A stretch of DNA of 37,242 bases, from the NCBI GenBank assembly GCA_964615385.1, contig CAZTMQ010000002.1:1-37242 (forward strand), given 5' to 3'. Below the pieces are notes generated by a model. The model searched no databases and was not told the DNA's origin. It saw nothing but the letters and a program-made list of their open reading frames with translations. How positions within the stretch are numbered: the first letter of the stretch is position 1; each line of letters opens with the position of its first letter. Shown in pieces: positions 11,554-37,242 of this stretch. The stretch comes from an uncultured Methanosarcinales archaeon (GTDB taxonomy: Archaea; Nanobdellota; Nanobdellia; Woesearchaeales; UBA119). The position numbers and the translations under genes are program-made.

Positions 11554-11598
11554 AAAAAATTCAACAAAGTGAAAATTATTTTAAAGAGGTGTTTTAAG

Positions 11599-11973
11599 AT
11601 GAAAACTAAAAGCCCAAAGGGCACAACAAAGAAAAAGGCAGCTAACACAACGCTCAAGCAGGCCACAAAAAAGGTAGTATTATCAAAGCTTTGCGAGGAT
11701 GTTGGAGAAGATAAGAAGTTTTTAGTTGCAAATGGAGAGATCCTCTCAAATATCTGGGACCTAATCCATCTGCTGGACCATGTTGATGATTACACATTTT
11801 ATCATCACGTAAATGATGAAAAGAACGATTTTTACAATTGGATTAAGGAGATGTATGGTGATGGGGAATTTGAGAAGGTCATACTTCCAATAAGAAACCC
11901 AAAGGAATTAGAAATTGCAATCTTGAAGTATATAATCAATATGCTTTCAAAGGATAAGCAATTTAGCCTATAG
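11599..11973 (+). CDS. Small protein: lysine-rich N-terminus plus recurrent FxLxNG...HHVN..NDFxxW domain
   Basis: ATG 11599 follows AGAGGTG. The 5' part of track ORF 11491 lies inside the non-coding repeat element. Domain sequence: KKFLVANGEILSNIWDLIHLLDHVDDYTFYHHVNDEKNDFYNWIKEMY. Confidence 0.7.
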   Translation: MKTKSPKGTTKKKAANTTLKQATKKVVLSKLCEDVGEDKKFLVANGEILSNIWDLIHLLDHVDDYTFYHHVNDEKNDFYNWIKEMYGDGEFEKVILPIRNPKELEIAILKYIINMLSKDKQFSL

Positions 11974-12118
11974 TTAAAATAATTTTAGCGGTTTTCCCTT
12001 GGAGTTAGGATGCTTTTAGCACACAGGGATTTTATTTTAAATTAAGAGAGTGGTTTTAAAATAATTTTTTGCTTAACTTTTTGTAAGGGTTATGTTTTAA
12101 AAAATATCAAGAGGTGGT

Positions 12119-13921: not shown

Positions 13922-13922
13922 A

Positions 13923-21415: not shown

Positions 21416-23144
21416 CTTGTCCTATGTTGTCGTCTTGTCCTAATGTTTCATCAGGGGTTGAATGTTGCTGATCTTGAGTTATGGACAAATTATCATTCTT
21501 TTTACTTTGTTTATTTTGTTTATTTTGCTTTACTATTGAATTTTCTATCTCCATTAATTCTTTACTAAGCATCTGCTTTGACTCATATGCTTTTCCTAAG
21601 AGATAAAGATTTGAGATTATCCTTTTTAGTTCGGGATAACTTAAAGCAAAGGCCTCAAATGGCTTATCAGAGCGTAAACGCTCTATATTTATCAAAAGAT
21701 CTTCTTCAAGCCCTTTGGCATCCTTATTCTCTTTGTATATCAAATAAAGCTTTAACATGTCCTTATATATTTCAAAGAGCTCTGGAGCCTTAGAAAGTGC
21801 CTCTGAAAGCTCACTGTTTTGGCCTAATTGATATATATCGTTGGCAATTTCTGATTCAGTCCTCAAAAGCTCTTGATTAGCTATCTTTATGAGGTTTTTA
21901 ATAGAAACGTAATGGGTGTTAAATAAAAGTCTGACCCTCCTTATCTTTTGAGCTTCATCGTATGTGAAAAATTTTATAAAAATGGCTATAACTAAAGGCG
22001 AAAGCATTAGCAAAAAGATTAAAAGCCAAAGATTTTCAAAGTACTCTTTTGGACATAACGCAAAGAAATAATGATATAAATATATGATGACAGAGATTAT
22101 GAGAAATATCGCTATGAATATCTTTGAATTTGTGATAGCCTTATATTTTAGTACTGCTTTTTTTATCTCATCAAGCTTTTTGTTTTTTTCCAAAAGCTTA
22201 AGCCTAAAATGAAGCCTTGCTATTCTCAATGTGATTACACAAAAAATAATTAGATAAAATACGATGGAAGGCAAGCTAAAGAATCCTAATCTTAGCTCAC
22301 ACTTTGATATAATCCCTAATGGTCTTTCTTCTTCAACTGTCCTATTTGTATAGTTATGTATAGGAGTTTCATTAAAAACTATCTTCTCTTCATATATGCA
22401 AGGTAAAATTATATCAGGCATATTTTCTGTGGTGTTACAGTTATTTAAATCGATACACTCTCTAACTTTTGTTCCATTTGGAAAGCATTCGCTCCATTCA
22501 GAGCACACCCACTTCTCCTCGCAGAGTGCCTCTTCAATTGGCAGAGACTCAGGAACGCCTGAACCAAAATCACTACCCGCTCCACCTGCGCTACTGTCTC
22601 CACCACCTTCGCCACTACCTCCCTGGGAAGGTGGCTTATCTGGGGTAACAGGGCATTCACCACAATCCTCTGGGCAAGTCACACAGCTTTCAAACGATCT
22701 ATCACAAAAGCCGTCCCCACACACTAAAGGTGGAGAAACAAGATTTACTTCCATAAAAGTCCCACTATACCATCGAGAAAAATTAAAGGTTTGATTGGTA
22801 GCATTAAGAACTGTTGCAGGAAACGTTCCAACCTTGAAATATATTTGCTCATTTTCAATCGGGCCTAAATCGCCATAATTCTCGTCCGCGCCCCTGCACG
22901 TCATCGTTCCATAATATCCAAGGTTTTCAACTAAAAATTTTCCACACATATTGCCTCTTGAATCGTAGGCAGTAATCGGTGTCCCTGGGGGCGCGGGCAT
23001 TCCGTAAAGCCTTGCAAAGCCATAATACTCTGTAGGAAGCGGTGGAATTGAAAGGGCAAATTTCGGTAAAATTAACAGTAAAAGGAAAGCTAAAGCTATG
23101 CAAAAGAGGCTCGCTTGATTTGGCTTTGAGGTTAGTCTTCCCAT
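21399..23144 (-). CDS. Multi-pass membrane protein with Cys-rich ectodomain and coiled-coil cytoplasmic tail
   Basis: Met 23144 (MGRLTSKPNQ + hydrophobic stretch) is preferred over the track start 23183. It has Cys clusters CGDGFCDRSFESCVTCPEDCGEC and CEEKWVCSEWSEC, a Gly/Ser linker and several hydrophobic helices. Its 3' end overlaps the queH start. Confidence 0.6.
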   Translation of the reverse strand: MGRLTSKPNQASLFCIALAFLLLLILPKFALSIPPLPTEYYGFARLYGMPAPPGTPITAYDSRGNMCGKFLVENLGYYGTMTCRGADENYGDLGPIENEQIYFKVGTFPATVLNATNQTFNFSRWYSGTFMEVNLVSPPLVCGDGFCDRSFESCVTCPEDCGECPVTPDKPPSQGGSGEGGGDSSAGGAGSDFGSGVPESLPIEEALCEEKWVCSEWSECFPNGTKVRECIDLNNCNTTENMPDIILPCIYEEKIVFNETPIHNYTNRTVEEERPLGIISKCELRLGFFSLPSIVFYLIIFCVITLRIARLHFRLKLLEKNKKLDEIKKAVLKYKAITNSKIFIAIFLIISVIIYLYHYFFALCPKEYFENLWLLIFLLMLSPLVIAIFIKFFTYDEAQKIRRVRLLFNTHYVSIKNLIKIANQELLRTESEIANDIYQLGQNSELSEALSKAPELFEIYKDMLKLYLIYKENKDAKGLEEDLLINIERLRSDKPFEAFALSYPELKRIISNLYLLGKAYESKQMLSKELMEIENSIVKQNKQNKQSKKNDNLSITQDQQHSTPDETLGQDDNIGQDERNE

Positions 23145-23821
23145 GTTAATACCCAATAAACATCTTTTGTAACATTTATCCAATATCCCTTGCCAGGAAC
23201 AAAATACTCAAGATCCCCACCAGTAATGTTGTCATATGTAAGCCATCCTTCATCATATGATACAACCTTTGTAAAATCATTCTTTATTGATTCAAGTGCT
23301 GATGTTACGTTCCTAGTTTCTATGGAAGGATACCCTACATAATTCCAGCCGGTGTAAAGCTTTATTGATGTAGTGGTGAATCTAAGCCCTTCTCTAAAGT
23401 ATGTTCCATTTTCATTCATGTAAACGTAATATCCTTCCTTTCTGTTTAGCCTGTCAAATCCTTGCACAACCCAATCAGGAAGGCTTGGGTTATAGCTATC
23501 CCATGAATCATTTCTATCTGTTGGATTATATCTAAAAAAATAAGAATAATTTAGCGATTCGTTGCTTGCATTAGTAAAGCTCTCATTTATTGTTCCAACT
23601 CCTGTTTCACAATAAAAAGAAACAATATTCATTCCTTCTTGCAATTCCACAGTGCAGTTTTCTGGAGGGGTTTCATATATATAAGCGCTGGTAACAGTAT
23701 TTCCTGTAATCTTATTTATTACTTCCAAAAAGATTGGAGAGCTAAATATAAACACAACAGCTAAAAGGATTAACACAATCAGAATAAGAAGCAAGGTGAT
23801 GTCTTTTTTCAGCTTAATCAC
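23132..23821 (-). CDS. Signal-anchored secreted protein, sequon-rich
   Basis: The probable start is GTG 23821 behind GAGGAAAAGG, giving KLKKD followed by a TM helix. The track ORF extends to 23875. GWNYVGYP and PGKGYWINV motifs are common in archaeal surface proteins. Confidence 0.55.
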   Translation of the reverse strand: MIKLKKDITLLLILIVLILLAVVFIFSSPIFLEVINKITGNTVTSAYIYETPPENCTVELQEGMNIVSFYCETGVGTINESFTNASNESLNYSYFFRYNPTDRNDSWDSYNPSLPDWVVQGFDRLNRKEGYYVYMNENGTYFREGLRFTTTSIKLYTGWNYVGYPSIETRNVTSALESIKNDFTKVVSYDEGWLTYDNITGGDLEYFVPGKGYWINVTKDVYWVLTWED

Positions 23822-23981
23822 CCTTTTCCTCTTTAAAATCAAGATACCAGCGATTCTTTGATTTGTCATATACAAATATAACAGAATGCTTTTTTTTAAG
23901 GTCTAGCGGAAATAAAAGCGGCATAGGGATTGTTGTTTCATATGAACTGCCCCTAGAATAAAGTTTTCTTTTAATCTCCAT
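23814..23981 (-). CDS. Small (55 aa) possible AbrB/SpoVT-like DNA-binding protein, absent from the ORF track
   Basis: Hand translation: MEIKRKLYSRGSSYETTIPMPLLFPLDLKKKHSVIFVYDKSKNRWYLDFKEEKGD. The RK..S.G.S..TTIP pattern resembles swapped-hairpin AbrB-type domains. Its stop overlaps the downstream GTG start (GTGATTAA). Confidence 0.35.
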   Translation of the reverse strand: MEIKRKLYSRGSSYETTIPMPLLFPLDLKKKHSVIFVYDKSKNRWYLDFKEEKGD

Positions 23982-24169
23982 AAGAAAGTCTTTTGCTCTT
24001 TGAGTATTTAAAGGTTACTTATTTTTTTACATAGAAAAATACTTACTTTTTTACTTATTTATTGGATAAGAAACCATAAAAATTACACACTTTAAGTACT
24101 TGGCCTTCTTTTAAAGCACCAAAATTTAATGATAAAATAAAAACAACCATAAGAAAAAAATATGACCAA

Positions 24170-25945
24170 CTAAAGCTTTTCACCGCATTTTTTGCAGTAT
24201 TTTCTAACAATAGGATTTTTGTAGCCACACTTTTTACATTTCTTCTTTAGGAGCATTAAAAGCAAGAGTACAATTATTAGCACGATTACAATTATTATCG
24301 TGAAATCAAATGCCGCATATTTGAAATCGTATAATCCTTCTTTAACCTTTATTAATGCGTTTTCCCTTTCTCCATAGATTACCTTGACTTTCACCTGAGG
24401 ATTTTGAGGGATATCCAGTTCAGTCATTGTTGTTTGTATTGGGATTGTTATTGTCTTTCCAACAGGAACCAGGGTAATTCCGTCAGCACCTACTATCAAA
24501 AGTTCACCATTAACATCAAGGTCATGTATCTCTGCTGTTACATAAGCATCAACAGTCCCCACGTTTTTTACTTTAACCAAGAATCTGCTACCGCTCTTTG
24601 CATAGCTTACATCTATAATATCAATTTCTGCCTCATCAAATATGCTTACCCGCTCAACTTTTATTATCTTTTGAAGTGTTTGCTCTAAGGATTTAGGAGA
24701 CTCTCCATATATTGTGTTTATTTCTAATGTAAGATTATCTCCAACAAGCTCTATTTTGTTTCCATCTGCATCAACAAGAGGGTGTATTGTTGTCTTATAG
24801 CTATTTGCTTCTATATATTCAGCAGGGGATTCATCAGGGATTACAACACTTTTTTCTTCATCAGTAATAGTTAAGAGCAGTGGATGGAAATAAGCCCCGA
24901 TTCTCCCAGGATTATGATATGTAATTTCAAGATTATTTGTAGCAGTATTAATAGAAGCAGTGACTATTTCAAGGCTTAAGGGATATGTTGGGATAGGAAA
25001 TCTATCAAGATCTTCAACTTGAGCAACAGCTCCTTGCGGCACCCTTGCCCCTTGCCCGAACTTCACAAAGACACTTAGGCCCGTCTGTCTTCTCACAAAC
25101 GTAGCTGTACCAATTAATTCGTTGCCTACTAAAGTTCCAACCTGAAGATCACTGTTTTTTATATAATCCCTCACCTGATCTGGAACATTTGAATAGCCTA
25201 TAAAAAGCACTGGATCCTTTCCTGCAACAACGCTATCTTCAATAAACTCTCCATTTGTAAGTATAGCCTGCCGTCTTGGCTCTCCATTAAGCTCTTCATA
25301 TAACTCCTGATATAGCTTTACAATCTCAATATTATTATCAAATCGATCTCCTGTATTTATTGTAATTGGATTATATTTTTCAAGCGCATCTTTAACCTGC
25401 CTTGCCACCTGACCATAGATTATTACTTCACTTGGTGAGCGTTCATCCATAGCCCGCACAAGTTGGTTTATGTTTCTTTGGTCAGCAAAAAGAACATAGT
25501 ATTTGCCAAGTAATGCGTATGGTGCAACAGAAATCGAGTTATACCCATAAGAAGGGTCTATTATTATGAACTTTTTTATGCTGGGAAGTAGCTCCAAGAG
25601 CTCCAAATTGCCATTTCCAACCTTAAGCTCCTGAACGTTGTCATACCCATCATTTTCAAGTATGCTCTTGTAATTTAATACATATGGGTTTGTTCTAGAG
25701 CTAATTATCTCAACAGGTGCCGCGCCTTTAGGAATAGAGTAAAGAATAATGGTTCCATGCCGTGTACTCGTGAGAAAATACCCTTGGTATCCATTAAGAT
25801 TAGCATAGAGCATTCCAGAATAAACATCCTTCCAATCTGCAGAGTTTATTAATACTCTTGTTCCCTGAGACTGCGCTAACGCGATGGAGGGCAGGCTAAC
25901 CAGCACTAAAGCCAGCATAACTAAAATTAAGCATCTTAACTTCAA
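24170..25945 (-). CDS. Secreted surface protein with C-terminal TM anchor and cytoplasmic zinc ribbon
   Basis: Sec signal MKLRCLILVMLALVLVSLPSIALA-QSQ. Three alpha/beta-like repeats are loosely reminiscent of cell-wall-binding modules. A TM helix (IIIVIVLIIVLLLLMLL) is followed by CKKCGYKNPIVRKYCKKCG. Confidence 0.65.
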   Translation of the reverse strand: MKLRCLILVMLALVLVSLPSIALAQSQGTRVLINSADWKDVYSGMLYANLNGYQGYFLTSTRHGTIILYSIPKGAAPVEIISSRTNPYVLNYKSILENDGYDNVQELKVGNGNLELLELLPSIKKFIIIDPSYGYNSISVAPYALLGKYYVLFADQRNINQLVRAMDERSPSEVIIYGQVARQVKDALEKYNPITINTGDRFDNNIEIVKLYQELYEELNGEPRRQAILTNGEFIEDSVVAGKDPVLFIGYSNVPDQVRDYIKNSDLQVGTLVGNELIGTATFVRRQTGLSVFVKFGQGARVPQGAVAQVEDLDRFPIPTYPLSLEIVTASINTATNNLEITYHNPGRIGAYFHPLLLTITDEEKSVVIPDESPAEYIEANSYKTTIHPLVDADGNKIELVGDNLTLEINTIYGESPKSLEQTLQKIIKVERVSIFDEAEIDIIDVSYAKSGSRFLVKVKNVGTVDAYVTAEIHDLDVNGELLIVGADGITLVPVGKTITIPIQTTMTELDIPQNPQVKVKVIYGERENALIKVKEGLYDFKYAAFDFTIIIVIVLIIVLLLLMLLKKKCKKCGYKNPIVRKYCKKCGEKL

Positions 25946-26646: not shown

Positions 26647-29600
26647 ATGCAAGCAAAAACAAAGGAAAGGATTGGGAAAATAGGGTTTAAGGCAATTACC
26701 ATTATCGGGGTGATGATGTTTTTATGCCTTATCCAATTGGGAAGTTCGTTTGAGTTTGCTATCTCTTCAGAAAGTCCAAATATATATGAAGATGAGACAC
26801 TTATTTTAAACCTTAGTATTTTAGAGGTAAATGGGACCCTTAACTTTACAAAAAATGTAAGCTTTGGAGAGCTAAATAAGGTAAATGAAACTCTCTTGCA
26901 ATTCAACTGGATTCCTGAGCAAGCATTGCTAACAAATAAAACAAATACATTCAGCGTACTTTTTAACGTATCAGATAACAGTTCATCGCTTAGTAAAGAA
27001 GTTACCATTACCGTTACTAAAAGAAATGACCCGCCTCGGATAATAAATTCTACTCTTGGAGGGCTTATTTACCAATCAAGAGCAGAGATATTTTTAGAAT
27101 TGGATAGACAATCCGTTTGTAAATATAGCCTTTCTAATAAGAGCTATAGCTCTATGGAATACACTTTCAATTCTGATGAAAGCAAAATAATCCACAATAC
27201 AACAACGCCTTTTATGTCTCAAGGCACTAAAAGAATCTATATTTTGTGCAGGGATTTTTCAGAAAACTACATGGAAACGCCACATGTGATAACCTTTGAT
27301 GTGAATCTTGCGCCAACTGCAGAAATCTATCTTGAGCCTTCTCCACCTCTAAAATCTGAAAGAGTATATGTTGAACTAATTGCATCAGAAGATCTTGCAA
27401 GCGCACCTGAATTAAGTTATATATTTGATGATGACTCAAGCCCTAAGATTGTATCGTTAGTTGGATCTAAAAGAAGATGGGAAGGTTATATGATAATTAG
27501 AGGAACCAATATTGAAAGAGTTGGTAGCTTCTCATTTAAGGGTGTCGATTTAACAGGGATTGAAGGTACTGAGATTACAAAGGGAAAATTGTTTTTAATA
27601 GATACAAATAAGCCAGGGCCTGTCCAAAGCATTGAGGTTACAAACCAGTACGATAGGACCAGGATCGCGTGGGCATACTCCCTTGAAAAGAATTATAATA
27701 TTGTCGAATACAGAATTTATAGAAGAGTAGATAGTGGGGGAGTGGATTATGTTGACTACTATAAAAGTACCTCCAATAACTATTTCTATGATAAGGACGT
27801 AGAATTCAAGAAGAGCTACTATTACAGGGTAAGTGCTGTTGATGATGCTGGAAATGAAGGAGAGCTTTCAAAGGAAGTATTTACCACTTTCATCCCAGAT
27901 TTACCTGAAGAAACTGTGGAAAATACTAATTCAGAAGAAGAGTACAAGTTAAGCCCAGCACTACAGATTGCTTTAGAAACAAAAATTGATGCGGTTGACA
28001 AAATAATTTTAGATCTTGAAAAACAAGAGGAATACTTCAAAAGGATTACTGGCACAGAGAATATTGAGGTTATTCAATCATTAGGGCTTATAAGCCAAGT
28101 TGCCTTTGCAAAAACAAAAGTGGAAGAGATAAAAGAAGACCTTGTTAATTTAAAATTGCATAACTTATCTGATGAGAACTTTGCAGACTCAGTGGATATG
28201 CTTTTAGCACAAGCTGAATTAGAATTCAATAAAGCACCATCCAAAATTACACTAATAGACTCATCCAGCTACCAGGAGTTTATTGATGAATCACTGATAA
28301 AAGAAATAGCAAACGAATATATCGATGCTGAAGGTAACGATATTATAGCTCTTGAAGAGCTTTTGGAAAACTCAATTTCCTTGCAGGAACAAATAACAGT
28401 TAATGCTTTGCTTATTGAATCAGAGATTACATATCCTAACCAAACACTAAATGTAAAAACTGTAAAGAAAACCCTAAATGCCAGGGAAACTATTAATAAC
28501 GCGATTATAGTAGAATCACTTCCAAAAAGCCTAGATTATGATTTTAGTTCTATGATTATTGATAGCGAGCCACTCCTAAATGAAGCAAACGATATGGTTT
28601 GGGAAGAGCCAAAGTTATCAAAAAAGACTATAGTGTATTCATTAGTGGATTATCCAGATTTCACAACGCTTAAAGAATCTAAGCTTGTTGTTCTTGGCAT
28701 AAAAAATGACGAAACTAATGTTTCAGATATTACAGGGCTTGCAATTTCCGAATCACAGGAGAAGATGAGCCCTTTGATAATTCCAATTATTATCGGTATC
28801 ATCCTTGCGGGCATATTAGGCGTTTATTACTTTGTTTCTTCAAGAAAGGATAACGAAAGCCAAATATCAAATCCATTTAACAGAGCAGAAAAAGAAAGCC
28901 TAAAAGAATTGCTAACCGATTTTCACATCGGCAAAAGAAAGCAATCTTATCCAAAGGCAAATGAAGATAAGAAAAAGCTTTTAAGAATTGAAGAAGAGGA
29001 AGTTGATTACAAAAAAAATAGTGGCTACGTATTTGATAAGAAGAGCGTTAGAAATACCCTAAATGAAACAGAATTGCTTGAATCTGAGCTAATTGATTCT
29101 ATCAAAGGAAAAGATTTGGATTATGATGGCGCTCATGAGCCAGCAATTGAGAAAAATAGATTTGGCTCCATAACTCAAAGCAACAGCAATCAAAACATTA
29201 ATACTAACAATAGTGCGTTTAACATCCCAAAAGGACCTACACCTGATCTGGATATACATAAAATATACCAACATATTTTAAAGTATAAAACAGCAGTAGA
29301 AGGGGGAAAAGATATCAATATTAAAGAAATGCAAGAGATAAAAGAAACCCTACAAAAAATCAAATCTACCTGTGATGAAATTGATAAGGCAAGGGTTGAA
29401 AGCTATACTGAAAAGGCAAAGAGCTATCTAAAAGAGACCTTAAAATATCTAGAGAGCATGGAATTTTCAAAAGATGTAAAAATAAAAGAAACAGCAACAA
29501 AAAGAAAGAAAAAATCACTTATTCAAAAGTCAAAACTAAGAGATTTAAGCTATATTAAACCCAAGAGAGCAAGGAGAGCAAGACTTCAGCCCGATAATAA

Positions 29601-29934
29601 CAAGGCGTTTAAAGACACATCAAGGCAAGTCGATAAGCCAAACTCCAAAGAACTTAAAGAGCGCCAAATAATACAAAAAATAGATATTCATCATATGGCT
29701 CCAGAAGATAAATTCTTTTCTCTTCAAAACGGAATTAGATTAAGAAATATTAATGAATTAGTAGACTACCTTGCTGTAATTGATAAGGAGTTATTTTGGC
29801 AACATGCAAACTTCTCAAAAAATGACTTTGCAACATGGATTAGGGATGTTTTTAATGCAAAAGAGCTTTCAAATGAAATAGAAAGGGCTCTTGACCCAAA
29901 AGAGATGAGAGAAAGAATAATTAAATTCTTTTAA
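26647..29934 (+). CDS. Large bitopic surface protein: Fn3-containing ectodomain, TM helix, cytoplasmic tail ending in the recurrent domain
   Basis: N-terminal signal/anchor, an NDPPRI cadherin-like motif, and a fibronectin-III-like block (YRIYRR...YYYRVSAVDDAGNEG). The TM helix is PLIIPIIIGIILAGILGVYYFV. A ~350-aa K/E-rich tail ends in DKFFSLQNG...FSKNDFATWIRDVF. Confidence 0.75.
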   Translation: MQAKTKERIGKIGFKAITIIGVMMFLCLIQLGSSFEFAISSESPNIYEDETLILNLSILEVNGTLNFTKNVSFGELNKVNETLLQFNWIPEQALLTNKTNTFSVLFNVSDNSSSLSKEVTITVTKRNDPPRIINSTLGGLIYQSRAEIFLELDRQSVCKYSLSNKSYSSMEYTFNSDESKIIHNTTTPFMSQGTKRIYILCRDFSENYMETPHVITFDVNLAPTAEIYLEPSPPLKSERVYVELIASEDLASAPELSYIFDDDSSPKIVSLVGSKRRWEGYMIIRGTNIERVGSFSFKGVDLTGIEGTEITKGKLFLIDTNKPGPVQSIEVTNQYDRTRIAWAYSLEKNYNIVEYRIYRRVDSGGVDYVDYYKSTSNNYFYDKDVEFKKSYYYRVSAVDDAGNEGELSKEVFTTFIPDLPEETVENTNSEEEYKLSPALQIALETKIDAVDKIILDLEKQEEYFKRITGTENIEVIQSLGLISQVAFAKTKVEEIKEDLVNLKLHNLSDENFADSVDMLLAQAELEFNKAPSKITLIDSSSYQEFIDESLIKEIANEYIDAEGNDIIALEELLENSISLQEQITVNALLIESEITYPNQTLNVKTVKKTLNARETINNAIIVESLPKSLDYDFSSMIIDSEPLLNEANDMVWEEPKLSKKTIVYSLVDYPDFTTLKESKLVVLGIKNDETNVSDITGLAISESQEKMSPLIIPIIIGIILAGILGVYYFVSSRKDNESQISNPFNRAEKESLKELLTDFHIGKRKQSYPKANEDKKKLLRIEEEEVDYKKNSGYVFDKKSVRNTLNETELLESELIDSIKGKDLDYDGAHEPAIEKNRFGSITQSNSNQNINTNNSAFNIPKGPTPDLDIHKIYQHILKYKTAVEGGKDINIKEMQEIKETLQKIKSTCDEIDKARVESYTEKAKSYLKETLKYLESMEFSKDVKIKETATKRKKKSLIQKSKLRDLSYIKPKRARRARLQPDNNKAFKDTSRQVDKPNSKELKERQIIQKIDIHHMAPEDKFFSLQNGIRLRNINELVDYLAVIDKELFWQHANFSKNDFATWIRDVFNAKELSNEIERALDPKEMRERIIKFF

Positions 29935-29960
29935 GCCAAAATAAAGAAATATACTGGCTT
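29933..29960. terminator. Hairpin between convergent genes (candidate bidirectional terminator)
   Basis: AAGCCA-N16-TGGCTT spans the gap between the stop of the 1095-aa gene and the stop of the 298-aa gene. Confidence 0.3.
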
Positions 29961-30856
29961 TAAGGTGCCGTAGCAGTAAATCTCACAGTTCCTGTACAAA
30001 GGCCAAATGGGTTTGGTGGAACATAAAGTTGCCAATGAGTGATCCATGTCTCAGGGTTGCTTGCCTCAGTCGGCTGGGGAACTGTCATTCCCATATCCTT
30101 TCCAACCTCATCAAGCACGGTCTTATCCGCCCAGGCCACCAGATCAGCAACTGAGAATCTTTGATATTCTACTGAAATATTGTCTCCATGTTCACACACA
30201 AGGCCAAGACCATCACCTTCAGTTAAGCCATAGCCTAATACAGTAACGTTAATATCCATATTTCCAAAATTTGTTACTGTTGCGTTTATCTCTTCACTAG
30301 TATCCGTAACACTTAGGTTTCCGTAATCTATTACATCAGTTACATTAAGAGCATACAAAGCATTTATTGAAGTAGTATTATTGGCAGTATCTGTAAAATT
30401 ATGAGCATCAATCACGGTTACATTGCAATTCCAGCTCCCGTTATTGGCAAAGTAATATACCTCAAAACTGCAAGAGTAATTAGCCCAATATTCGCCATCA
30501 TTACTTATCTCTTCGCAGGATGCGTTTGTATAATGTACATTTCGGTCATCAGGATCCTCTGAATTATTAAGATAATAGTAGAATGTAGCATTCACGTTGC
30601 TAATATCACCAAAGCCGTTCCAATCACGAATGGTAGCGTTACAGGTTACTGTTGTAATGTTTCCGGCGTTAAGAACTATATTTTGATCAACATCCACCTG
30701 AAAAATCTCAGGAAATGCATTCGTAATGTTTACCTGTGTCGTTACATTAACATGCTCGTAGTTATAAGCGCCTGCAAAAAGCACAACTTGCAAAAAAGGC
30801 AAAGCCAAAGCTAACATTAACGTGCTAATGATTAAAATCTTTGAAGATGATTTCAT
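29960..30856 (-). CDS. Secreted sequon-rich beta-protein (P3), Cys-containing Ig-like repeats
   Basis: Sec-type signal (LMLALALPFLQVVLFAGA) and dense N-x-S/T sequons. It is the last gene of the three-gene minus-strand operon. Confidence 0.68.
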   Translation of the reverse strand: MKSSSKILIISTLMLALALPFLQVVLFAGAYNYEHVNVTTQVNITNAFPEIFQVDVDQNIVLNAGNITTVTCNATIRDWNGFGDISNVNATFYYYLNNSEDPDDRNVHYTNASCEEISNDGEYWANYSCSFEVYYFANNGSWNCNVTVIDAHNFTDTANNTTSINALYALNVTDVIDYGNLSVTDTSEEINATVTNFGNMDINVTVLGYGLTEGDGLGLVCEHGDNISVEYQRFSVADLVAWADKTVLDEVGKDMGMTVPQPTEASNPETWITHWQLYVPPNPFGLCTGTVRFTATAP

Positions 30857-30887
30857 TTTTATCCTTTGCTGATTTTCTAGCAGTCGC

Positions 30888-31670
30888 TTAGGCTCCTATC
30901 TCAGCATAAAAATAGTACGCTGTTGTGTCACCCACCTTATCGGGAACCATTATCTGAAAGTCTGCTATTGTTTCGTTATTGTAACTTTGCGCACCTTTAT
31001 TGATAGGAGTAGCATATACTGTACTTTCTGAACTTATCAAAAGTATGATAGGATAAGATGCACTTGCCTGATCTTCTGCCGTATCATTTACATAAGTGCT
31101 TGTTGTATTACATGTATTCTCAGTAATAGTAGTAGTGCCAACAACAAGTTGTGGATGAAGAGTACTGTTAAATGTTTTATTTACGCTATCTACAACAGAG
31201 GAGTTAAAGCCCATGTATGTATCTTCCCCTTCTATATGGGTAAGGTTTGCGCATTCAACCGCTATGTCCCAGTCGATTGAACCATTTCTAGAAACGTAGA
31301 CTTCACCAGTCAAATCCTCTATTGCCATTGACCACTCGAATATTGATTTACCTGAAGAATCATCTAAAGATAGCGCACCAGATAAATTTCCTACATAGGC
31401 CTTCCACCGATCATTTTGCTGAACAACATCAAGGTCCATAGTAGTAATGGTACCCCCTGCATCGCTTCGGGAGGGCGCTGGAGTATCTGATTTACTATCA
31501 GTAACATTATTGGATATTGAAACCCCTGTAGGCGCAGCACTCGTTAGACCTACAAAGGAAAGTATAAAAAGGAGTGAAATAAAAATTACTCCTACGCAAA
31601 AACAAGTCTGAGTAATAGCCACCTTACAGCGATTCTCGCAGGGTTTTTTTGGATTTTTGTTACCTGTCAT
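30888..31670 (-). CDS. Secreted sequon-rich protein (P2), paralog of P1
   Basis: Hydrophobic signal anchor ending in LTSA-APTG. It aligns with P1 through GNLSG, GEVYVS and VECA blocks and ends in ADFQIMVP...YYFYAEIGA. Confidence 0.7.
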   Translation of the reverse strand: MTGNKNPKKPCENRCKVAITQTCFCVGVIFISLLFILSFVGLTSAAPTGVSISNNVTDSKSDTPAPSRSDAGGTITTMDLDVVQQNDRWKAYVGNLSGALSLDDSSGKSIFEWSMAIEDLTGEVYVSRNGSIDWDIAVECANLTHIEGEDTYMGFNSSVVDSVNKTFNSTLHPQLVVGTTTITENTCNTTSTYVNDTAEDQASASYPIILLISSESTVYATPINKGAQSYNNETIADFQIMVPDKVGDTTAYYFYAEIGA

Positions 31671-31742
31671 TTAATATCACACGCCTTCTCAGTACAATAA
31701 ATGCAATCTTCAAATAATAAAAGGCAAAATAAAATAGCATTT

Positions 31743-32516
31743 TTATTCAATCTCTATCCAAAAATAGTATCTCGTGGTCACTGTGTTACCGAGCTGGCCA
31801 TTTTCTGCAACTAACATTTGGAAATCATAAAGCCCACCATCATAACCCGCTTCATCATCCCTTTCTCCTGATTGGTCATCCTCAAGGATAGCTGTAAAAA
31901 TCAAGGTGCTATTGGAATCGCTTGAGAGCAAGACAGCAGGGAAATTTGTAGCTTGCGATACATTATTCTGGAAGGTATAAGTGGTTCTACACCCAGTAAG
32001 ATTTGTAAATCCCACCTGAAACATAGCATGATCGGTTGCATTGTACGTATCATTCAAATCATCGTAATCTGAGTGAAGCATACCATAAAATGTATGCCAT
32101 TCATCAATATATGTTGCGTTATCTATTGGAGCACACTCAACAGTTGTCCATGAAATGGTATTATTTACTGAAGCAAACACCTCACCCTGTGGCTCCGCAA
32201 CAGCCCAATCATAAAACCTAAATCCTGTGGAATCCTCTAAAATGATTGTACCCGAAACATTTCCAAAAAAGCCCTGCCACGATTTTGTTGGAGAAACACC
32301 AGTGATTGTTAATTCTGTAAGATTTCCCGCAATCGCATCCACGTAATCCGGCTGATACAAACTTGCGTTAGATGTTTCACTTCTAACTGTACTAACATTC
32401 TCAGCGCCTAGTGGTACGTTAAATCCCGAATCATCTGCCCAAGCCCACGTACCAAACAGTACTAGGCTCACTAAAATTCCCATTGTGAACAAAACATCTC
32501 TTCGTTTCATTTGCAT
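31743..32516 (-). CDS. Secreted sequon-rich protein (P1), paralog of P2
   Basis: Classic SPase I signal (LVLFGTWAWA-DD) with GAGGTG before the ATG. It has GNVSG, GEVFAS and VECA blocks and the terminus YDFQMLVA...YYFWIEIE. Confidence 0.7.
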   Translation of the reverse strand: MQMKRRDVLFTMGILVSLVLFGTWAWADDSGFNVPLGAENVSTVRSETSNASLYQPDYVDAIAGNLTELTITGVSPTKSWQGFFGNVSGTIILEDSTGFRFYDWAVAEPQGEVFASVNNTISWTTVECAPIDNATYIDEWHTFYGMLHSDYDDLNDTYNATDHAMFQVGFTNLTGCRTTYTFQNNVSQATNFPAVLLSSDSNSTLIFTAILEDDQSGERDDEAGYDGGLYDFQMLVAENGQLGNTVTTRYYFWIEIE

Positions 32517-32968
32517 TACACCTCAAACATTCTTATTGAATTTAGACTATTCTCAATAAAGTCCATGACTTTCTATATACCTTTTGCTATACTCATATAT
32601 AAATGTTTCTAAAAATAGAGATTTTAGCACAGCAAGATAGTGAATGTATATAATATGCCACAGGAGTATTTTTTCGTATTTTTGCCAAAAAGAAATCTCG
32701 GAATATTGAGATTAGAAAATGTTTCTCCTTCGCTTCTCTCTTCCACTGCAAAAACATATTTTAGAATGGCTAAGAAGATTGCCGTTTTCCCAACTGAAAA
32801 GCTAGAATTATGGTTTTTTTATTATACCCCTAAAAATCCCACTTTAAATATGCTAAAGAATTATCTTTAAAGGCAAGCATTTTATTCTCGTGAGAATTGA
32901 ATTAATGTGATTACTGTTGCCAGATTAAAATAGATTCAAAGAAAAATTATTATTAGATATACTTATAC

Positions 32969-33937
32969 TCAATATAATATACCTACAAGTATCCTTTGGA
33001 CTGCATCAAATCTTACCTTTTCAGGGTCTGACACCTTAAGATTGTCACCCTTGGTAATAGCATACCAACCATCTTCATCGAAGCCTGTTTCTAAGACTCG
33101 GTGAACTATGACCTTGTCATTATAAGTATAACTGATAATGTCTCCCGAATGTATATCGTCAACTGAAGCAGGTACTACTTCTAACCCCAATGAATCTGAG
33201 GTAATTGTAGGAAGCATAGAACCACTCTTCCCAAATCTCGCCAATATAATATTCTTAGCCTCAATAGTAACATAATTGGGCTTCACAACAATAGCATTTG
33301 CATTTATTCTATGGCTGGGTCCAGGAGAGTTTAAAAGCCCAATCCTTTTTATCTCTTCAAAAAGTTCTTCGTTTTTATCCGCAAGCTCTTTTAAGGCAAG
33401 ATCACTATCAAAAAGCTTTTCATTTAATGAACGTATCATAAGAGTTTGCGCATTACTTTTGTCATTCAAGGATAAGAGTAAACTATAAGTCGAAGAAAGC
33501 TCATTTTCTAAAACGCTAATCTTTGAGGTATAATAACCTTTTTGCATAAATAAAGCTACAAAAAGCATTGCATAAACTAAAAACCAAATATATGAAAAAA
33601 CCTTTGTGTTTGGCCTGTTTTTAACTGCATTAATAAAGGAGGAGTTATCCTTAGAATTCATTCCTTTAAGCAAATTTATTCGCAGGGTTAGGATTCGCTC
33701 ATATCCTGATTTACTATTAGAGTTTTTTAGCTTAGAAACAAGCACATGGTCATCGTAGTTATCTAAAATCCAATCTAAAAAGAAATTTGGGTTCGTAAGA
33801 GTATGTATTTTGAACTCATATTCACTCATTGCCTTAAGGCTTGAAAGAAGCTCTTCATAATTACGTACAAAGCTTCCATCTCTAAGCTTTAGCCCTTTAC
33901 CATATTTCACATCCTTAAGGAAAAAAGACCTCTCCAA
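32969..33937 (-). CDS. Type I signal peptidase (S26B, archaeal/ER/SipW type) fused to N-terminal recurrent domain, TM helix and coiled coil
   Basis: The C-terminal catalytic module has SGSMLPT (Ser nucleophile), VHRV (His) and KGDN. The N-terminus GLKLRDGSFVRNYEELLSSLKAMSEYEFKIHT..NPNFFLDWI matches the recurrent domain. The TM helix is VFSYIWFLVYAMLFVALFM. Confidence 0.8.
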   Translation of the reverse strand: MERSFFLKDVKYGKGLKLRDGSFVRNYEELLSSLKAMSEYEFKIHTLTNPNFFLDWILDNYDDHVLVSKLKNSNSKSGYERILTLRINLLKGMNSKDNSSFINAVKNRPNTKVFSYIWFLVYAMLFVALFMQKGYYTSKISVLENELSSTYSLLLSLNDKSNAQTLMIRSLNEKLFDSDLALKELADKNEELFEEIKRIGLLNSPGPSHRINANAIVVKPNYVTIEAKNIILARFGKSGSMLPTITSDSLGLEVVPASVDDIHSGDIISYTYNDKVIVHRVLETGFDEDGWYAITKGDNLKVSDPEKVRFDAVQRILVGILY

Positions 33938-34128
33938 AAAACCACCCCTCTGCTACTTTAAAGCATATGAACATTAAATAGTTACAACAAAGTTATAAAT
34001 AAAACAATTAAACACTAAAACGTAATTTGGCTAAGTGTTTGTAGCCAAGGCAAATTAATAACAACGATGATAACTGGTGATGGCTCTTTTTAAATCTTGC
34101 CAATATTTAAGCTAAAAACCGCTCAAAA

Positions 34129-34422
34129 ATGAGAAATTTCTTGTCGGATTGTGAACCGGAAAGTGCATTTTGGTCAACTAATGGGGTTGTTTGCAGAAAC
34201 CTAAATGAGCTTTTGCTTTGCATAAAGGGCCTTAATGAAAGCGACTTTAGATATCACGTCAATCAAGACAACAAAAAGAATGATTTTGCAAAATGGATTT
34301 TAGAGGTTATTGGAGATGAAGTTTTGGCTAGGGCACTATCCGCAGTATTAGATAAGGACTTATATGCTGATATCATAGAACAAAGAATGAAACACCTCGA
34401 GTCGGATTATAAAGCTTACTAA
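34129..34422 (+). CDS. Stand-alone recurrent-domain protein (97 aa)
   Basis: ESAFWSTNGVVCRNLNELLLCIKGLNESDFRYHVNQDNKKNDFAKWILEVIGDE is essentially only the domain. Confidence 0.65.
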   Translation: MRNFLSDCEPESAFWSTNGVVCRNLNELLLCIKGLNESDFRYHVNQDNKKNDFAKWILEVIGDEVLARALSAVLDKDLYADIIEQRMKHLESDYKAY

Positions 34423-34440
34423 ACAAGCTCGTGGTTGCGT

Positions 34441-35598
34441 CTAAAATTCTCGAATAATCTTTATCATTTCACTAGGGCTCTTGGCATTTTTTATATGATC
34501 CGCAATCTCACGATAGGAAAATACATGCTCAACCCACGTAGAAAAATCATTTCTCTCCTCATTAACATGGTGCCTAAAAACTTCTTCATCCATCTTTGAA
34601 AGCTCATATAACAAATCCTCTACGCTATAAAGCAAAACCCCATTTTGAAGCCGAAATGCCTTATCAGAAGTGGTCTTTTTTCCAAGCATTCTGAATTTTT
34701 CAGCATTTCTAATAACATTCTTGAATCGGGCAAGCTTTTTTTCAATCTCGCTTTCCTTCTCAAGTAAAAGGTTTCTAGCACTCTCAAATTCCCTGCTTCG
34801 TATAAGCCACTCAGATTCGAGTTCTCTTAATTCTAAAAGATAACTATATACCACATCATCAATATCCTTCTCGCCTAAGAAAAAATGCCTCCCGCTTTTA
34901 AGTGATTCATGATAATCTTTCATTTTATGCAAAAGCCCAGAACTAATAGTTGAATAAAGCTCGCTTTTCTCCTCGTTAAATCTTCTTTCTAGCTCTTTAA
35001 AAAAGGAAATAGAGGCCCTTTCATTTTGGGCTTGCATTCTTTCATCAATCAAGTTTGTTTCTTTAGGATTATTATTTCTGTCAAAATTCCATTTTTTTGA
35101 TTGGGAGCTATCTTCAAAACTGTTAGACTCTAAAGGATTTGTCCCTTTATAGACTGAATTGCTTGAATTACTGCGATAATTATCTTCATTTTTCTTATAA
35201 AAATCAAAGGGATTATTAGTTTCTCCCGATGATCGATTTGAGTTCCCAACTGTGTTTAACCTGGAATAATCATAAGGCTGGCTCTCAGTTGGTCTCGTAC
35301 TCTTGGAAGAATCTGCATTTTCATCAACTGAAATACTTATTCCTTTGATCTCGGGGCTCACCAGGTTCTCAGGAAGCCTTCTTGGTTCGTTATGTTCATT
35401 TGAACCACTAAATCCACGATTTGTCCTTTCAAGATTTTGCCCATCAGACATTTGAGATGGTCCAATTGGGTCTTTGGTGTAATCCCCCCTATCAAAAGCC
35501 ATATTTTTATCCATTGTAGTATCAGGAAGACTCGGAGGTACATCTAAAGAAACAGATTTATCTTTCCCCTTACCATTAAAACCTAAAAACGAAACCAT
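34441..35598 (-). CDS. Cytoplasmic protein: disordered N/S-rich region, coiled coil, C-terminal recurrent domain
   Basis: No signal peptide or TM helix. About 190 aa are low-complexity and the middle is helical. The C-terminus DKAFRLQNGVLLYSVEDLLYELSKMDEEVFRHHVNEERNDFSTWVEHVF is very similar to the tail of the 1095-aa protein. Confidence 0.65.
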   Translation of the reverse strand: MVSFLGFNGKGKDKSVSLDVPPSLPDTTMDKNMAFDRGDYTKDPIGPSQMSDGQNLERTNRGFSGSNEHNEPRRLPENLVSPEIKGISISVDENADSSKSTRPTESQPYDYSRLNTVGNSNRSSGETNNPFDFYKKNEDNYRSNSSNSVYKGTNPLESNSFEDSSQSKKWNFDRNNNPKETNLIDERMQAQNERASISFFKELERRFNEEKSELYSTISSGLLHKMKDYHESLKSGRHFFLGEKDIDDVVYSYLLELRELESEWLIRSREFESARNLLLEKESEIEKKLARFKNVIRNAEKFRMLGKKTTSDKAFRLQNGVLLYSVEDLLYELSKMDEEVFRHHVNEERNDFSTWVEHVFSYREIADHIKNAKSPSEMIKIIREF

Positions 35599-35755
35599 TG
35601 ACCCCCTCTAAAGGGAAAAATTGCAGAACTACTTTATAAATTTTTTGAAATACTCTGATTTTGCTATCCGAAATAGACACTCAACTTTTTTAGTAAAGAG
35701 AGCCATTAAAAAATACCCTTGCAAAAGAATGAAAAGATTGGCCGTTTTGCGCCTT

Positions 35756-37242
35756 TTAGTTAATCTCCACATAAAATGCAAGCTTACTATTCCCCGCTTT
35801 ATAATCTCTAAGCATCGCCGGAACCCTTATCTCGTAGTCGTAAGAACCGTATTTGCCTTCAGAATTTGGATTTATTTGGGTAATAAACACCACATCTTCA
35901 TCATCTCCCGTATCATACTGAAGATTGCCCTTATCATCATCCTTATCCCATAAAATACCCGTTTTAAAATTTGAATTATTCGTACTATCAACTATTGGAA
36001 CGTCATTAATAATGCCTGTTGACAGATTAAAAGAACCTACCTCTTGAGGGCTCTCGGTGCCTTCACCCCAGATATTTTTTATGGAATCACTAAAATCAGT
36101 GGTTCCAAGATTCTCATCTAGATTTGAGAAATCCTGTGCAGGATTACTATCTATAGTTTTTCCTAAGGGTATCAGATTTGAAAATAAAAACAGGCTATCG
36201 TAATCCGCAACTAATATGTTTCCCGATTGATTTGACAAGTTTGAAAAATCTAACAAAGTCTTATTATCGTATGTTGAGAGAACAAAATCAGTCGAAACAT
36301 TTCCATAAAAATAATGATAAAGCTCAACTTCTATAGTGTTATTTGCTTCATTATTAGAGTAATCTGACTCGTTCAAAAGCTCATCAGGGTTTACCACCAC
36401 AAATATATTATTCTTCCCTGCACTTAGAGAGTAACTGGTGTTGATTGTTAAAGTTTCTCCCTTAATTAGAGAATTAATGGGTAGATTTTCACTAATCATT
36501 GTTCCACCCAAATCAGGGTCTCCTTTAAAAAACTGAACTACAAATGATTCATTTGCATCAGTAAGCCCAAAATTAGAGATATTTGCAAATACTGTAATAT
36601 TATTTCCTTCAACCCTTAACCCTTCTGAGAACCAAATTCCTGTTTCATTGACTGTTAAATCTGGACCAGTGATATTAAGCGTAAAGTTGCTTTCAGCAAA
36701 CCCAGAATTGCCTTCATTATCATAACATAAAACATTCCATTCATAAAGCCCTAAACCCATAAAAATAGATTCAAAAGTATTACTAGCATTATTTGTTGGG
36801 CTAGTGTGCGTTTCATTAGAATCAAAAGCACCTGCCTTGCCAAAATAAAGAGTACAGTTATCAAGGTTTATATCGTATGGAATGTATGTAAAATTCAAGG
36901 CCCCTACACCTTTCTCAGTTTCATTTTCTGGAAGAATCAAAGTAATATTTGGGGCAGTTGTATCTGGAATAATTTCAAAAGTAGTGTAACCCGAAGAGTT
37001 CGAATAAGACTCTTTAGATACAAAAGAAACTATAGAATAATTAGCATAACTTTGGTCTTTTGTAGTCCAGTTAAATTCAGTAAGCCCAGATGTGTTTGTG
37101 TAAGAATCATTTCTATAAACTAAGATCTGTTCTTCACCAACTCCTGTTTGGTTTATCTGGGAATTAAGTCTATAGGTTACATTCATTTCAACCCAATATA
37201 AACGCATAGTGCTTGTTCCAGAACCACTTCCTTTAGTAACCC
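35756..37242 (-). CDS. Large adhesin-like surface protein, 5'-truncated by window edge; CARDB-like domain plus P1/P2-type C-terminal domain
   Basis: The reading frame stays open upstream of Met 37207 to the window end (..VTKGSGSGTST-MRLY). It has a CARDB-like block (NISNFGLTDANESFVVQFF...VVVNPDELLNESDYSNNE). The last ~190 aa (35759..36328) carry FYGNVS and end in YDYEIRVP...LAFYVEIN, like P1 and P2. Confidence 0.7.
   Translation of the reverse strand, partial: VTKGSGSGTSTMRLYWVEMNVTYRLNSQINQTGVGEEQILVYRNDSYTNTSGLTEFNWTTKDQSYANYSIVSFVSKESYSNSSGYTTFEIIPDTTAPNITLILPENETEKGVGALNFTYIPYDINLDNCTLYFGKAGAFDSNETHTSPTNNASNTFESIFMGLGLYEWNVLCYDNEGNSGFAESNFTLNITGPDLTVNETGIWFSEGLRVEGNNITVFANISNFGLTDANESFVVQFFKGDPDLGGTMISENLPINSLIKGETLTINTSYSLSAGKNNIFVVVNPDELLNESDYSNNEANNTIEVELYHYFYGNVSTDFVLSTYDNKTLLDFSNLSNQSGNILVADYDSLFLFSNLIPLGKTIDSNPAQDFSNLDENLGTTDFSDSIKNIWGEGTESPQEVGSFNLSTGIINDVPIVDSTNNSNFKTGILWDKDDDKGNLQYDTGDDEDVVFITQINPNSEGKYGSYDYEIRVPAMLRDYKAGNSKLAFYVEIN

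Follow-up and report, generated by a model that had tools for sequence, protein, structure and literature searches.

Chaperone-free surface fibres are known from archaea as threads and bundling pili (PMC9715654, PMC9245690), and the archaeal threads have canonical Sec-type signals and a conserved mature N-terminus (PMC9715654). Here we describe a gene cassette at one end of a 37,242-nucleotide stretch of DNA (the window; contig CAZTMQ010000002.1, positions 1 to 37,242 of the forward strand, assembly GCA_964615385.1) from an uncultured archaeon placed in the Woesearchaeales. The cassette encodes two small secreted proteins (P1 and P2, the X1- and X2-type subunits), a third secreted protein (P3) and the C-terminal part of a giant adhesin (P5). 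We found that P1, P2 and the C-terminus of P5 carry one common domain, which we named X. Woesearchaeota and other DPANN archaea are abundant, have for the most part not been cultured and presumably live attached to hosts; to our knowledge, how they attach, and how giant surface proteins are held on a wall-less cell, is largely unknown.

Like the subunits of archaeal threads (Saci_0406) and of other chaperone-free donor-strand filaments (AbpA, CanA and the Tat-dependent tafi), P1 and P2 are small, beta-rich proteins that are predicted to be N-glycosylated, with signals for Sec and type I signal peptidase (SPase I) and a conserved mature N-terminus, and as in those systems their genes are accompanied by genes for paralogs or partners but not for type IV machinery. 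Unlike thread, AbpA, CanA and tafi subunits, to which we found no sequence or fold similarity, X also ends giant adhesins and, in related loci, is the ectodomain of a HerA-like ATPase.

A common C-terminal domain in P1, P2 and P5

An earlier note on this DNA held that P1 and P2 are paralogs, that the last ~190 residues of P5 are the same domain and that all three proteins stop within one or two residues of a common aromatic motif, and each of these proposals was borne out. P1 and P2 align over 227 residues with 34% identity (BLASTP, E = 5e-28), and all of the motifs that had been quoted for them were recovered. Compared pairwise by BLASTP, P5 gave no significant match to P1 or P2, and the last 214 residues of P5 gave a borderline match to a profile of 38 small subunits (hhalign 62%, E = 7e-5). 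When we compared the profile of these 38 small subunits with a profile of 29 giant-protein C-termini from related loci, the match rose to 98.5% (hhalign probability; E = 3.9e-15), placing the X domain of P5 at 35759..36328. This alignment spans 171 columns, from T77 of P1 (TKSWQGFFGNVSG), which stands opposite YHYFYGNVS in P5, through the last residue.

For the comparative work we assembled a genome set of 82 loci. Besides the window, it comprises 79 distinct loci of species-representative genomes and 2 contig look-ups, and it contains 248 X-family open reading frames (ORFs), about 3 per locus. At E<=1e-3, a hidden Markov model (HMM) built solely from the giant C-termini recovered 216 of 248 small homologs. 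The C-terminal motif YYF.VE[LI] is present in 254 of 286 small homologs, with one residue after it in 199 and two in 47, and the giant proteins terminate in FY.E[IL]x. Asn, Thr and Ser are frequent in these proteins, so that the shared motifs might be chance or compositional and the P5 similarity unreal, as the insignificant pairwise BLASTP result would allow; however, the E-value of 3.9e-15 over an end-to-end alignment, the reciprocal HMM matches and a gene linkage that is conserved in both directions (see below) rule this out, and we regard it as almost certainly wrong.

P5 consists of Ig (immunoglobulin)-like repeats, a CARDB domain (36341..36664; PF07705 at residues 193-300, E = 1.5e-7, 32 bits vs a cut-off of 22.7) and then an X core that lacks the N-terminal tail of the small subunits and ends in AFYVEIN. 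In 34 of 34 giant relatives, X comes directly after the CARDB end motif E.NE.NN...V without a linker: the P5-type core starts right past the tail position, where it is joined to the last CARDB strand. The X cores of the giant proteins are without the tail and without both of the cysteines found in the small subunits. Because the closest full-length relative of P5 (locus L082, 78% identical in X) is 2778 residues long and has its neighbouring genes arranged as in the window, P5 is taken to be the end of a giant surface protein, in full a predicted Ig/CARDB adhesin of ~2800 residues.

X is always the final domain of the giant proteins, which have no C-terminal transmembrane (TM) segment or sorting signal. 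This position is typical of modules that bind a wall or envelope. As in SLH, CWB2 and dockerin-cohesin systems, a conserved module stands at the extreme C-terminus of large variable adhesins with partners encoded nearby; unlike in those systems, the partners carry the same domain (a homotypic arrangement), and there is no sequence or fold relationship. The position of X, and the many aromatic residues that are conserved in it, favor a reading in which X is a closed, monomeric envelope-anchoring or lectin-type domain that binds the cell envelope, such as S-layer or membrane glycans, with its tail packed in cis and no fibre. A diverged X would then anchor the giant adhesins at their C-terminus, whereas X1 and X2 would be small surface proteins in their own right. 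Foldseek found no lectin or carbohydrate-binding-module fold match, which speaks against this reading; further evidence on it is given below.

None of P1, P2 (at E<=1) or the 38 aligned family members matched a Pfam or NCBIfam model, and a sequence profile search of the PDB with the X family returned noise only. An AlphaFold2 (AF2) model of P1, made from the alignment of 38 sequences, has a confident beta-rich core (residues 79-257 mostly at a predicted local distance difference test score, pLDDT, of 80-95; predicted template modelling score 0.68). Searched with Foldseek, this model found nothing better than E = 0.3 in the PDB (template modelling score, TM-score, <0.2) and no match in BFVD. 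The PDB includes TasA, AbpA, cannulae, thread subunits and chaperone-usher pilins, and because both Foldseek searches were matchless, X is not a TasA, AbpA, cannula, thread, chaperone-usher pilin, type IV pilin or viral capsid domain. A word-indexed search with P1 found 123 homologs (0 named, 0 with a Pfam domain), and an exhaustive HMM search found 1420 X clusters at 50% identity, 498 of them with E<1e-30. Many of these clusters are proteins of 470-1635 residues with X at the extreme C-terminus, and X is widespread in Woesearchaeota and Nanoarchaeota. X is an undescribed beta-rich domain of ~180 residues, and we read the region as part of a cell-surface module, built on X, that is specific to Woesearchaeota, Nanoarchaeota and Pacearchaeota.

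The earlier note had recognized no TasA/camelysin motifs and had assigned the signals to the Sec/SPase I type rather than class III, and our data agree on both points. PF12389 (Peptidase_M73) was unmatched by P1, P2 and 38 of 38 family members, neither TasA nor AbpA appeared in the Foldseek list, and 113 aligned N-termini show a hydrophobic segment, AxA and a conserved mature N-terminus. An RKGQ-like N-terminus, which recalls a class III signal peptide, is seen in two homologs, yet the family overall has standard Sec signals. No PilB/FlaI ATPase, PilC/FlaJ platform protein or prepilin peptidase was found among the window ORFs scanned or the conserved neighbour families.

Could P1 and P2 nevertheless belong, though highly diverged, to the TasA/TapA/SipW families or to those of archaeal bundling pili and threads? 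As in Bacillus subtilis tapA-sipW-tasA (PMC9245690), where secreted paralogs lie beside a dedicated ER/archaeal-type signal peptidase, an ER-type signal peptidase gene is the neighbour, across a 452-bp gap, of the secreted paralogs of the window, and small, Sec-dependent, beta-rich subunits with a conserved mature N-terminus are thread-like (PMC9715654). However, no camelysin/TasA model matched in the 38 members, the PDB profile search was empty, and Foldseek of the confident core lists no TasA, AbpA, CanA, thread or chaperone-usher pilin. A jelly-roll fold superposable on TasA/AbpA was not found in the PDB by Foldseek, with the low scores given above, and the Saci_0406 thread was not among the matches by sequence (PDB profile search) or fold (Foldseek). 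In contrast to tapA-sipW-tasA, X is not a camelysin/TasA jelly-roll, the peptidase of the window is fused to a DUF5752-like domain with the catalytic serine ~110 residues past the TM segment, and the peptidase is linked in just 11 of 82 loci. We consider such membership very improbable. The earlier note had left homology to known threads or bundling pili unproven and had looked to structure prediction to decide: its caution stands, in that the P1 model has no TasA, bundling pilin or thread match, and the fold of X itself went unmatched.

The N-terminal tail and the X core of the small subunits

P1 is built from a Sec signal (cleavage at about AWA/DD), a tail that runs from VPLGA to AIAGNLTELTI (residues ~33-76) and an X core (residues 77-257) in which C128 and C176 form a pair and which closes with YYFWIEIE. 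P2 has the corresponding motifs DAGGTITTMDL in the tail and RWKAYVGNLSG and YYFYAEIGA in the core. Across the family, the N-terminus has K/R, a hydrophobic stretch of ~18 residues and AxA, then (E)PxGA, ~22 variable residues rich in S, T and N, and AxAGN[VI]TEL. Some of the best-conserved positions in the family (P35, G37, A61, A63, G64 and N65) lie in this tail of ~45 residues, and in the AF2 monomer residues 26-76 have pLDDT values <50. The two cysteines, C128 and C176, are invariant in the cores of small subunits. Three N-x-S/T sequons are conserved in the small X family (GNVT, GNVS and NETF), and P1 and P2 are probably N-glycosylated.

To relate tail and core positions, we aligned 540 non-identical small X proteins on the family HMM (effective number of sequences 470) and performed mean-field direct-coupling analysis (DCA) on 23871 pairs. 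As controls, the cysteine pair came out at rank 26, and the hairpins 92-100, 180-193 and 196/207/237 agree with the AF2 strands. Tail-core pairs near the top of the ranking were A61-Q81 (rank 3, z 9.8), D60-R249 (rank 11, z 8.3), N65-G82 (rank 19, z 7.1), A38-I254 (rank 23, z 6.5), A63-G240 (rank 31, z 6.2), L66-F84 (rank 35, z 6.0) and E68-Y230 (rank 45, z 5.0). Such couplings could be an artefact of the split between X1 and X2, but the main pairs survive when DCA is performed separately within each subfamily: in the X1 type, A61-Q81 is at rank 5 and D60-R249 at rank 12, and in the X2 type, A38-I254 is at rank 4 and D60-R249 at rank 6. Since the tail-core pairs rank among the strongest, the tail is predicted to dock on a defined surface made of beta1 (residues 80-85), strand 230-237 and the C-terminal strand, for which cis and trans docking are alike possible.

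We depart from the earlier note where it proposed the terminal aromatic strand as a donor for strand complementation. AF2 places the C-terminal strand of P1 inside the monomer core as a regular strand (E251-256, pLDDT ~85), and by DCA it couples with beta1, 112-116 and 194-197. Because it coevolves with these three core strands, it seems to belong to the core itself and not to be a free donor. The element of interest is the N-terminal tail of ~45 residues rather than the C-terminal strand: it is conserved, unplaced in the monomer model and missing from P5.

A weak match to the Nup98-96 autopeptidase S59 (best E = 3.9e-6, just under the cut-off) lies upstream of X in several long proteins that carry tail and X (P0175 residues 377-441, P0192 residues 383-446, P0213 and P0178). 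Autoproteolysis at this S59-like region could, if the match is real, release a free tail-X fragment.

A conserved cassette and a proposed tail-to-core assembly

In the related loci, the same gene order recurs: a giant X-ending protein, a protein of ~300-440 residues with a C-terminal DUF5752-like domain (the 'd' gene), X1, X2 and P3. The giant gene lies directly upstream in ~35 of the genome loci, the d gene lies 5' of X1 in ~35 loci, and P3-family ORFs are found in 66 of 82. Across 78 cassettes of the X-X-P3 type, the X genes in first and in second position form separate orthologous subfamilies in strict order; held-out sequences were classified correctly in 39/39 and 38/39 cases, and the hallmark motifs are kept in both subfamilies. 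When we performed the reverse test, a metagenome scan seeded only with the P5-type domain (8 closer sequences), ~35 of 80 metagenome loci had small X genes as neighbours of the giant gene, and many of the others are short contigs. The earlier note's proposal that small subunits and an adhesin share one module thus gains from a giant-adhesin/X1/X2/P3 cassette that is present in most of 162 related loci, with linkage in both directions.

Extra X genes outside the pair mostly follow a gene for a MarR-like winged helix-turn-helix (wHTH) protein of ~208 residues (44 ORFs in 37 loci, for example L001:9382-9999), which gives the pattern wHTH-X-wHTH-X-X-P3; a second HTH family of ~173 residues is present in 29 loci, and in the window the 452-bp gap 5' of P1 occupies the position of the relatives' regulator. 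This suggests that alternative X subunits are individually regulated. In the loci most closely related to the window (L006, L082, L083 and L084), a second P3-family gene lies directly upstream of the giant gene (order P3, giant, d, X1, X2, P3), and such a gene may also lie beyond the window end at 37242. Downstream (3') of P3 in seven loci of one clade (L029, L032, L036, L037, L053, L063 and L094) are genes for a 277-residue protein, a 151-residue coiled-coil protein and a ~680-residue P-loop (GSGKT) protein. On inspection of the sequences, we took the 277-residue protein for a putative tyrosine-recombinase-like integrase and the 680-residue protein for a putative HerA/DUF87-like ATPase; if this is right, it hints that some cassettes lie on or next to integrated elements.

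P3 is a different protein, as had been proposed, and is unrelated to X (hhalign 11-22%). It has 228 homologs, 0 of them annotated, Pfam and NCBIfam scans of P3 were empty, and its AF2 model (pLDDT 90.7) shows two tandem beta-sandwich domains; P3 might be a cap, an adaptor or an adhesin. Five cysteines are invariant, and a sixth is retained in 90% or more of the aligned sequences. Foldseek matched P3 to RbmA (E = 5e-6), ClfA/SdrG, FimH, CsuE and transglutaminase Ig domains at TM-scores of 0.2-0.33, a generic two-Ig likeness. An X-type N-terminal tail in P3, which a local hhalign match had raised (E = 1e-3, 22%), was rejected when the value fell to 11% in the profile-profile comparison, and a cryptic X in P3 or in the 591-, 247- and 594-residue proteins described below was rejected as well (hhalign <=36%, limited to the signal-peptide region).

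In related loci we also found proteins of ~1000-1230 residues with an N-terminal TM segment, directly after it the tail motif (for example INAEAGSITSMTL), and the X core, followed by CarboxypepD_reg Ig domains, a second TM segment, a cytoplasmic HerA/FtsK/VirB4-like P-loop ATPase and often a C-terminal DUF5752-like domain. The ATPase matches Pfam DUF87 (E = 1e-10 to 1e-12), and its best NCBIfam models are CedD, TraC and HerA, all far below their cut-offs. The ectodomain matches the small-subunit HMM (independent E = 4e-9 to 7e-8), and phmmer searches from the ectodomain hit dozens of small subunits. The earlier note's statement that there is no assembly ATPase holds for the window, which ends inside P5 and has no such X-ATPase within it, and does not extend to related loci, where an X ectodomain is fused to a HerA/FtsK-like ATPase. 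By these predicted architectures, X occurs in three forms: a free tail and core (X1 and X2), a tail-less core in the giant proteins, and TM-tail-core on a membrane ATPase.

Because X occurs in these three contexts, because the cassette is ordered and because tail and core are coupled, docking of a tail on a core is the most economical explanation. In this model, X1 and X2 would be exported by Sec and cleaved by type I signal peptidase. Each X protein would then dock by its tail on the core of a neighbour, at the surface to which the first strand, strand 230-237 and the C-terminal strand contribute, to form a short, chaperone-free stalk or fibre. The tail-less adhesin core would accept a tail and sit distally, TM-tail-X with the HerA/FtsK-like ATPase membrane protein would, in relatives, be the proximal base, and P3 would be a two-Ig-domain partner in the module. 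We tentatively favor X as such a tail-to-core assembly module, with a stalk that leads from membrane base to shaft to adhesin tip, at somewhat less than even confidence; from the sequence patterns we infer that tails bind in trans, that a polymer forms with a polarity of assembly and that P3, the DUF5752-like domains and the peptidase have roles in it.

Several findings weigh against tail-to-core assembly. The tail-core coevolution fits docking on the protein's own core, and thus a closed monomer, equally well, and many other long proteins retain the tail internally, after N-terminal domains and ahead of the X core, which suits cis docking at least as well as trans docking. The C-terminal strand acts as a buried core strand with no sign of a missing-strand groove, there is no Foldseek similarity to any donor-strand pilin, and the failure of AF2 to place the tail is weak evidence, from a run on only 38 sequences. 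The window lacks the HerA-type base protein, which only ~10 of 162 loci carry. The cis coupling and the long proteins of small-subunit type that keep the tail internally equally suit X as a closed envelope anchor. Anchoring alone, however, leaves unexplained the ordered X1-X2-P3 triad, the loss of the tail specifically from adhesin cores and a membrane-anchored protein that carries X beside its own TM segment, and we consider it unlikely overall.

The small X genes are abundant, conserved and paired and encode small, secreted proteins with many glycosylation sites, and the adhesin shares their domain. These features would also suit a two-dimensional S-layer-like lattice of X1 and X2, with or without P3, into which giant adhesins plug via their X core, and nearby conserved membrane proteins with unknown ectodomains could tether it. 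In contrast to a single housekeeping coat, the several cassettes found in many genomes and the extra solo X genes with their own wHTH regulators resemble variable appendage or adhesin sets, and a lattice seems distinctly improbable to us.

The tail-to-core model can be compared with chaperone-usher pili (FimH/PapG, shaft pilins and PapH). There, the tip adhesin joins receptor domains to a pilin-type domain without N-terminal extension, as in P5, the shaft subunits have an extension and a core, as in X1 and X2, and a base subunit is tethered; P3 weakly resembles the two-domain adhesins FimH and CsuE. Archaea have no outer membrane. Unlike chaperone-usher pili, the window system is without chaperone or usher, its X core has no Ig-pilin fold match and its C-terminal strand seems integral, not at the edge of an open groove.

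A more elaborate possibility is a DPANN host-contact organelle with a hexameric base of the HerA/FtsK/VirB4-like X-ATPase, a shaft of X1/X2 heteropolymer joined by tail-to-core docking and an adhesin of several thousand residues at the tip, which could do more than hold the symbiont on its host; we think this quite unlikely. Little probability likewise attaches to the idea that its DUF5752/OrfY-like domains recruit the signal-peptidase-like protease and other membrane partners, and just as little to ATP hydrolysis powering an exchange in which cargo such as DNA or protein passes between host and ultra-small archaeon. The remaining probability lies with other or unknown roles of X.

X is in any case a large unannotated domain family without detected structural relatives that is genomically tied to giant adhesins, P3, regulators and, in some lineages, a membrane ATPase of HerA/FtsK type. 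If tail-to-core assembly is true, it would be another independent origin of chaperone-free archaeal surface fibres and would provide concrete candidates for DPANN attachment (subunits, tip, base and processing enzyme). If it is wrong, X would still be a new envelope-anchoring domain that explains how adhesins are retained. A search of the literature on DPANN or Woesearchaeota surface filaments or on DUF5752 found nothing relevant.

The linked peptidase, DUF5752-like proteins and other genes of the window

The coordinates of the cassette and of the other features are collected in the table below. The GC content is 33-39% across the window, the gap between P1 and P2 is 72 bp and that between P2 and P3 is 31 bp. 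Homologs are nearly all in Woesearchaeota, Pacearchaeota and Nanoarchaeota metagenome-assembled genomes, which marks the window as DNA of a DPANN archaeon.

Features of the window and, in the last rows, ATPase genes of related loci
Feature	Coordinates	Strand	Remarks
P5, C-terminal 494 residues of giant adhesin	35756..>37242	-	frame open to 37240
385-residue protein, the conserved 'd' gene	34441..35598	-	between giant adhesin and X1
DUF5752-like copy, C-terminus of 385-residue protein	34453..34671
Stand-alone DUF5752 protein, 97 residues	34129..34422	+	PF19027 match
DUF5752-like copy, 97-residue ORF	34153..34377
Signal-peptidase-I-like protein (ER/archaeal S26B type), 322 residues	32969..33937	-	N-terminal DUF5752-like domain
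DUF5752-like copy, peptidase residues 11-83	33689..33907
Peptidase catalytic region, residues 206-322	32972..33322
Intergenic gap, 452 bp, 5' of P1	32517..32968	-	TATA-like TTTATATA 32596..32603; Shine-Dalgarno GAGGTG 32519..32524
P1, X1-type small subunit, 257 residues	31743..32516	-	signal peptide, tail, X core
P2, X2-type small subunit, 260 residues	30888..31670	-	architecture as P1
P3	29960..30856	-	two tandem Ig/FnIII (fibronectin type III)-like beta-sandwich domains, secreted; closes the cassette
1095-residue bitopic membrane protein	26647..29934	+	convergent with P3
DUF5752-like copy, cytoplasmic C-terminus of 1095-residue protein	29701..29922
Trio: 591 residues (24170..25945), 247 residues (23132..23875), 594 residues (21399..23183)	21399..25945	-	secreted/membrane
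QueH	20780..21415	-	bacterial-type queuosine gene
QueA	18311..19366	+	bacterial-type queuosine gene
Glycogen cluster	11491..16777	+
DUF5752-like copy, 160-residue ORF by glycogen synthase	11704..11925
X-ATPase	L001:2621-6304	+
X-ATPase	L004:3-3212	-
X-ATPase	L009:3-2900	-
X-ATPase, further loci	L034, L048, L070, L092, L093, L136, L144
~800-residue ATPase without X	L078, L092, L093, L101, L136, L144, L146

The 322-residue protein has, after its DUF5752-like domain, a TM segment at residues ~112-130, a coiled-coil spacer and the catalytic region. It has no Pfam match; it matches TIGR02228 (E = 3.3e-11, 43.3 bits, under the cut-off of 51.85) and the SipW model (E = 2.9e-6) over residues 237-314. 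It contains the catalytic-type motifs S240 (SGSMLP, as SMxP), H279 (VHRV) and D298/D304 (GDN..D) and is a putative signal-peptidase-I-like protein. Its spacer between TM segment and catalytic Ser consists of a coiled coil and an extra beta hairpin; the spacer is ~75 residues in stand-alone relatives (for example L045:13093-13653), and in SipW we take it to be only ~17 residues at the same position. If the SipW spacer is indeed short, the active site of this peptidase may lie well above the membrane.

The earlier note had described the module as SPase I-dependent, and as a defining trait this is weak. An SPase-like gene lies within 10 kb of the cassette only in the minority of loci given above, the DUF5752-peptidase fusion is limited to the window, L003, L006 and L082, and the 452-bp gap has its own promoter-like elements. 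SPase I dependence is trivially true of any Sec substrate, and the dedicated linkage is lineage-limited. Since the gap holds both TTTATATA, ~84 nt from the P1 ATG, and the GAGGTG Shine-Dalgarno sequence, its sequence suggests that P1-P2-P3 have their own promoter.

Five DUF5752-like copies of ~73 residues are present in the window. The copy in the 97-residue ORF, which has an ortholog (d91) in L003 and L082, matches PF19027 (E = 8.8e-7, 28.9 bits vs a cut-off of 23); the four other copies are below this cut-off and align with 8 invariant positions. The DUF5752 profile matches PDB entry 4CSO, OrfY of Thermoproteus tenax (E = 1.7e-5). The 385-residue protein has no TM segment and a cytoplasmic look, with a disordered N-terminus and a coiled coil before its C-terminal DUF5752-like domain. 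The 1095-residue protein has a signal peptide, an ectodomain of ~680 residues, a TM segment (705-723), a cytoplasmic coiled coil and its C-terminal DUF5752-like domain; orthologs of 909-1110 residues are found in L003-L009, and in closer relatives they are convergent neighbours of P3. We infer that the DUF5752-like domains are a cytoplasmic interaction module that gathers membrane components.

In the neighbouring trio, the 591-residue protein has a signal peptide and a C-terminal TM segment followed by a cytoplasmic zinc ribbon, the 247-residue protein has an N-terminal TM segment, and the 594-residue protein has a signal peptide, a Cys-rich region and 3 TM segments. Homologs are present in 33/82, 23/82 and 24/82 loci, respectively, and the 591-residue type is also common in metagenome loci. 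We rejected the trio as FlaH/I/J-like assembly machinery on finding no Pfam/NCBIfam domain and no P-loop; the three proteins could be anchoring or assembly components.

The closest relative in the genome collection (L003, CAZQHF010000014.1), in which P1 is 78% identical and the gene order is that of the window, is labelled Candidatus Saccharibacteria, and numerous other loci are labelled 'uncultured Methanosarcinales' (binchicken records) with Woesearchaeota-type gene content. These labels look like mis-binning or placeholder taxonomy. The glycogen cluster of the window encodes a eukaryote-like GT3 glycogen synthase (PF05693, E = 8e-131), whose gene is preceded by the DUF5752 ORF, and an amylo-alpha-1,6-glucosidase-like protein (GDE_C, E = 9e-17). 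Archaea normally make archaeosine instead of queuosine, and the presence of QueA (Pfam E = 1.7e-105) and QueH (E = 1.7e-53) on a DPANN contig is possibly the result of horizontal acquisition.

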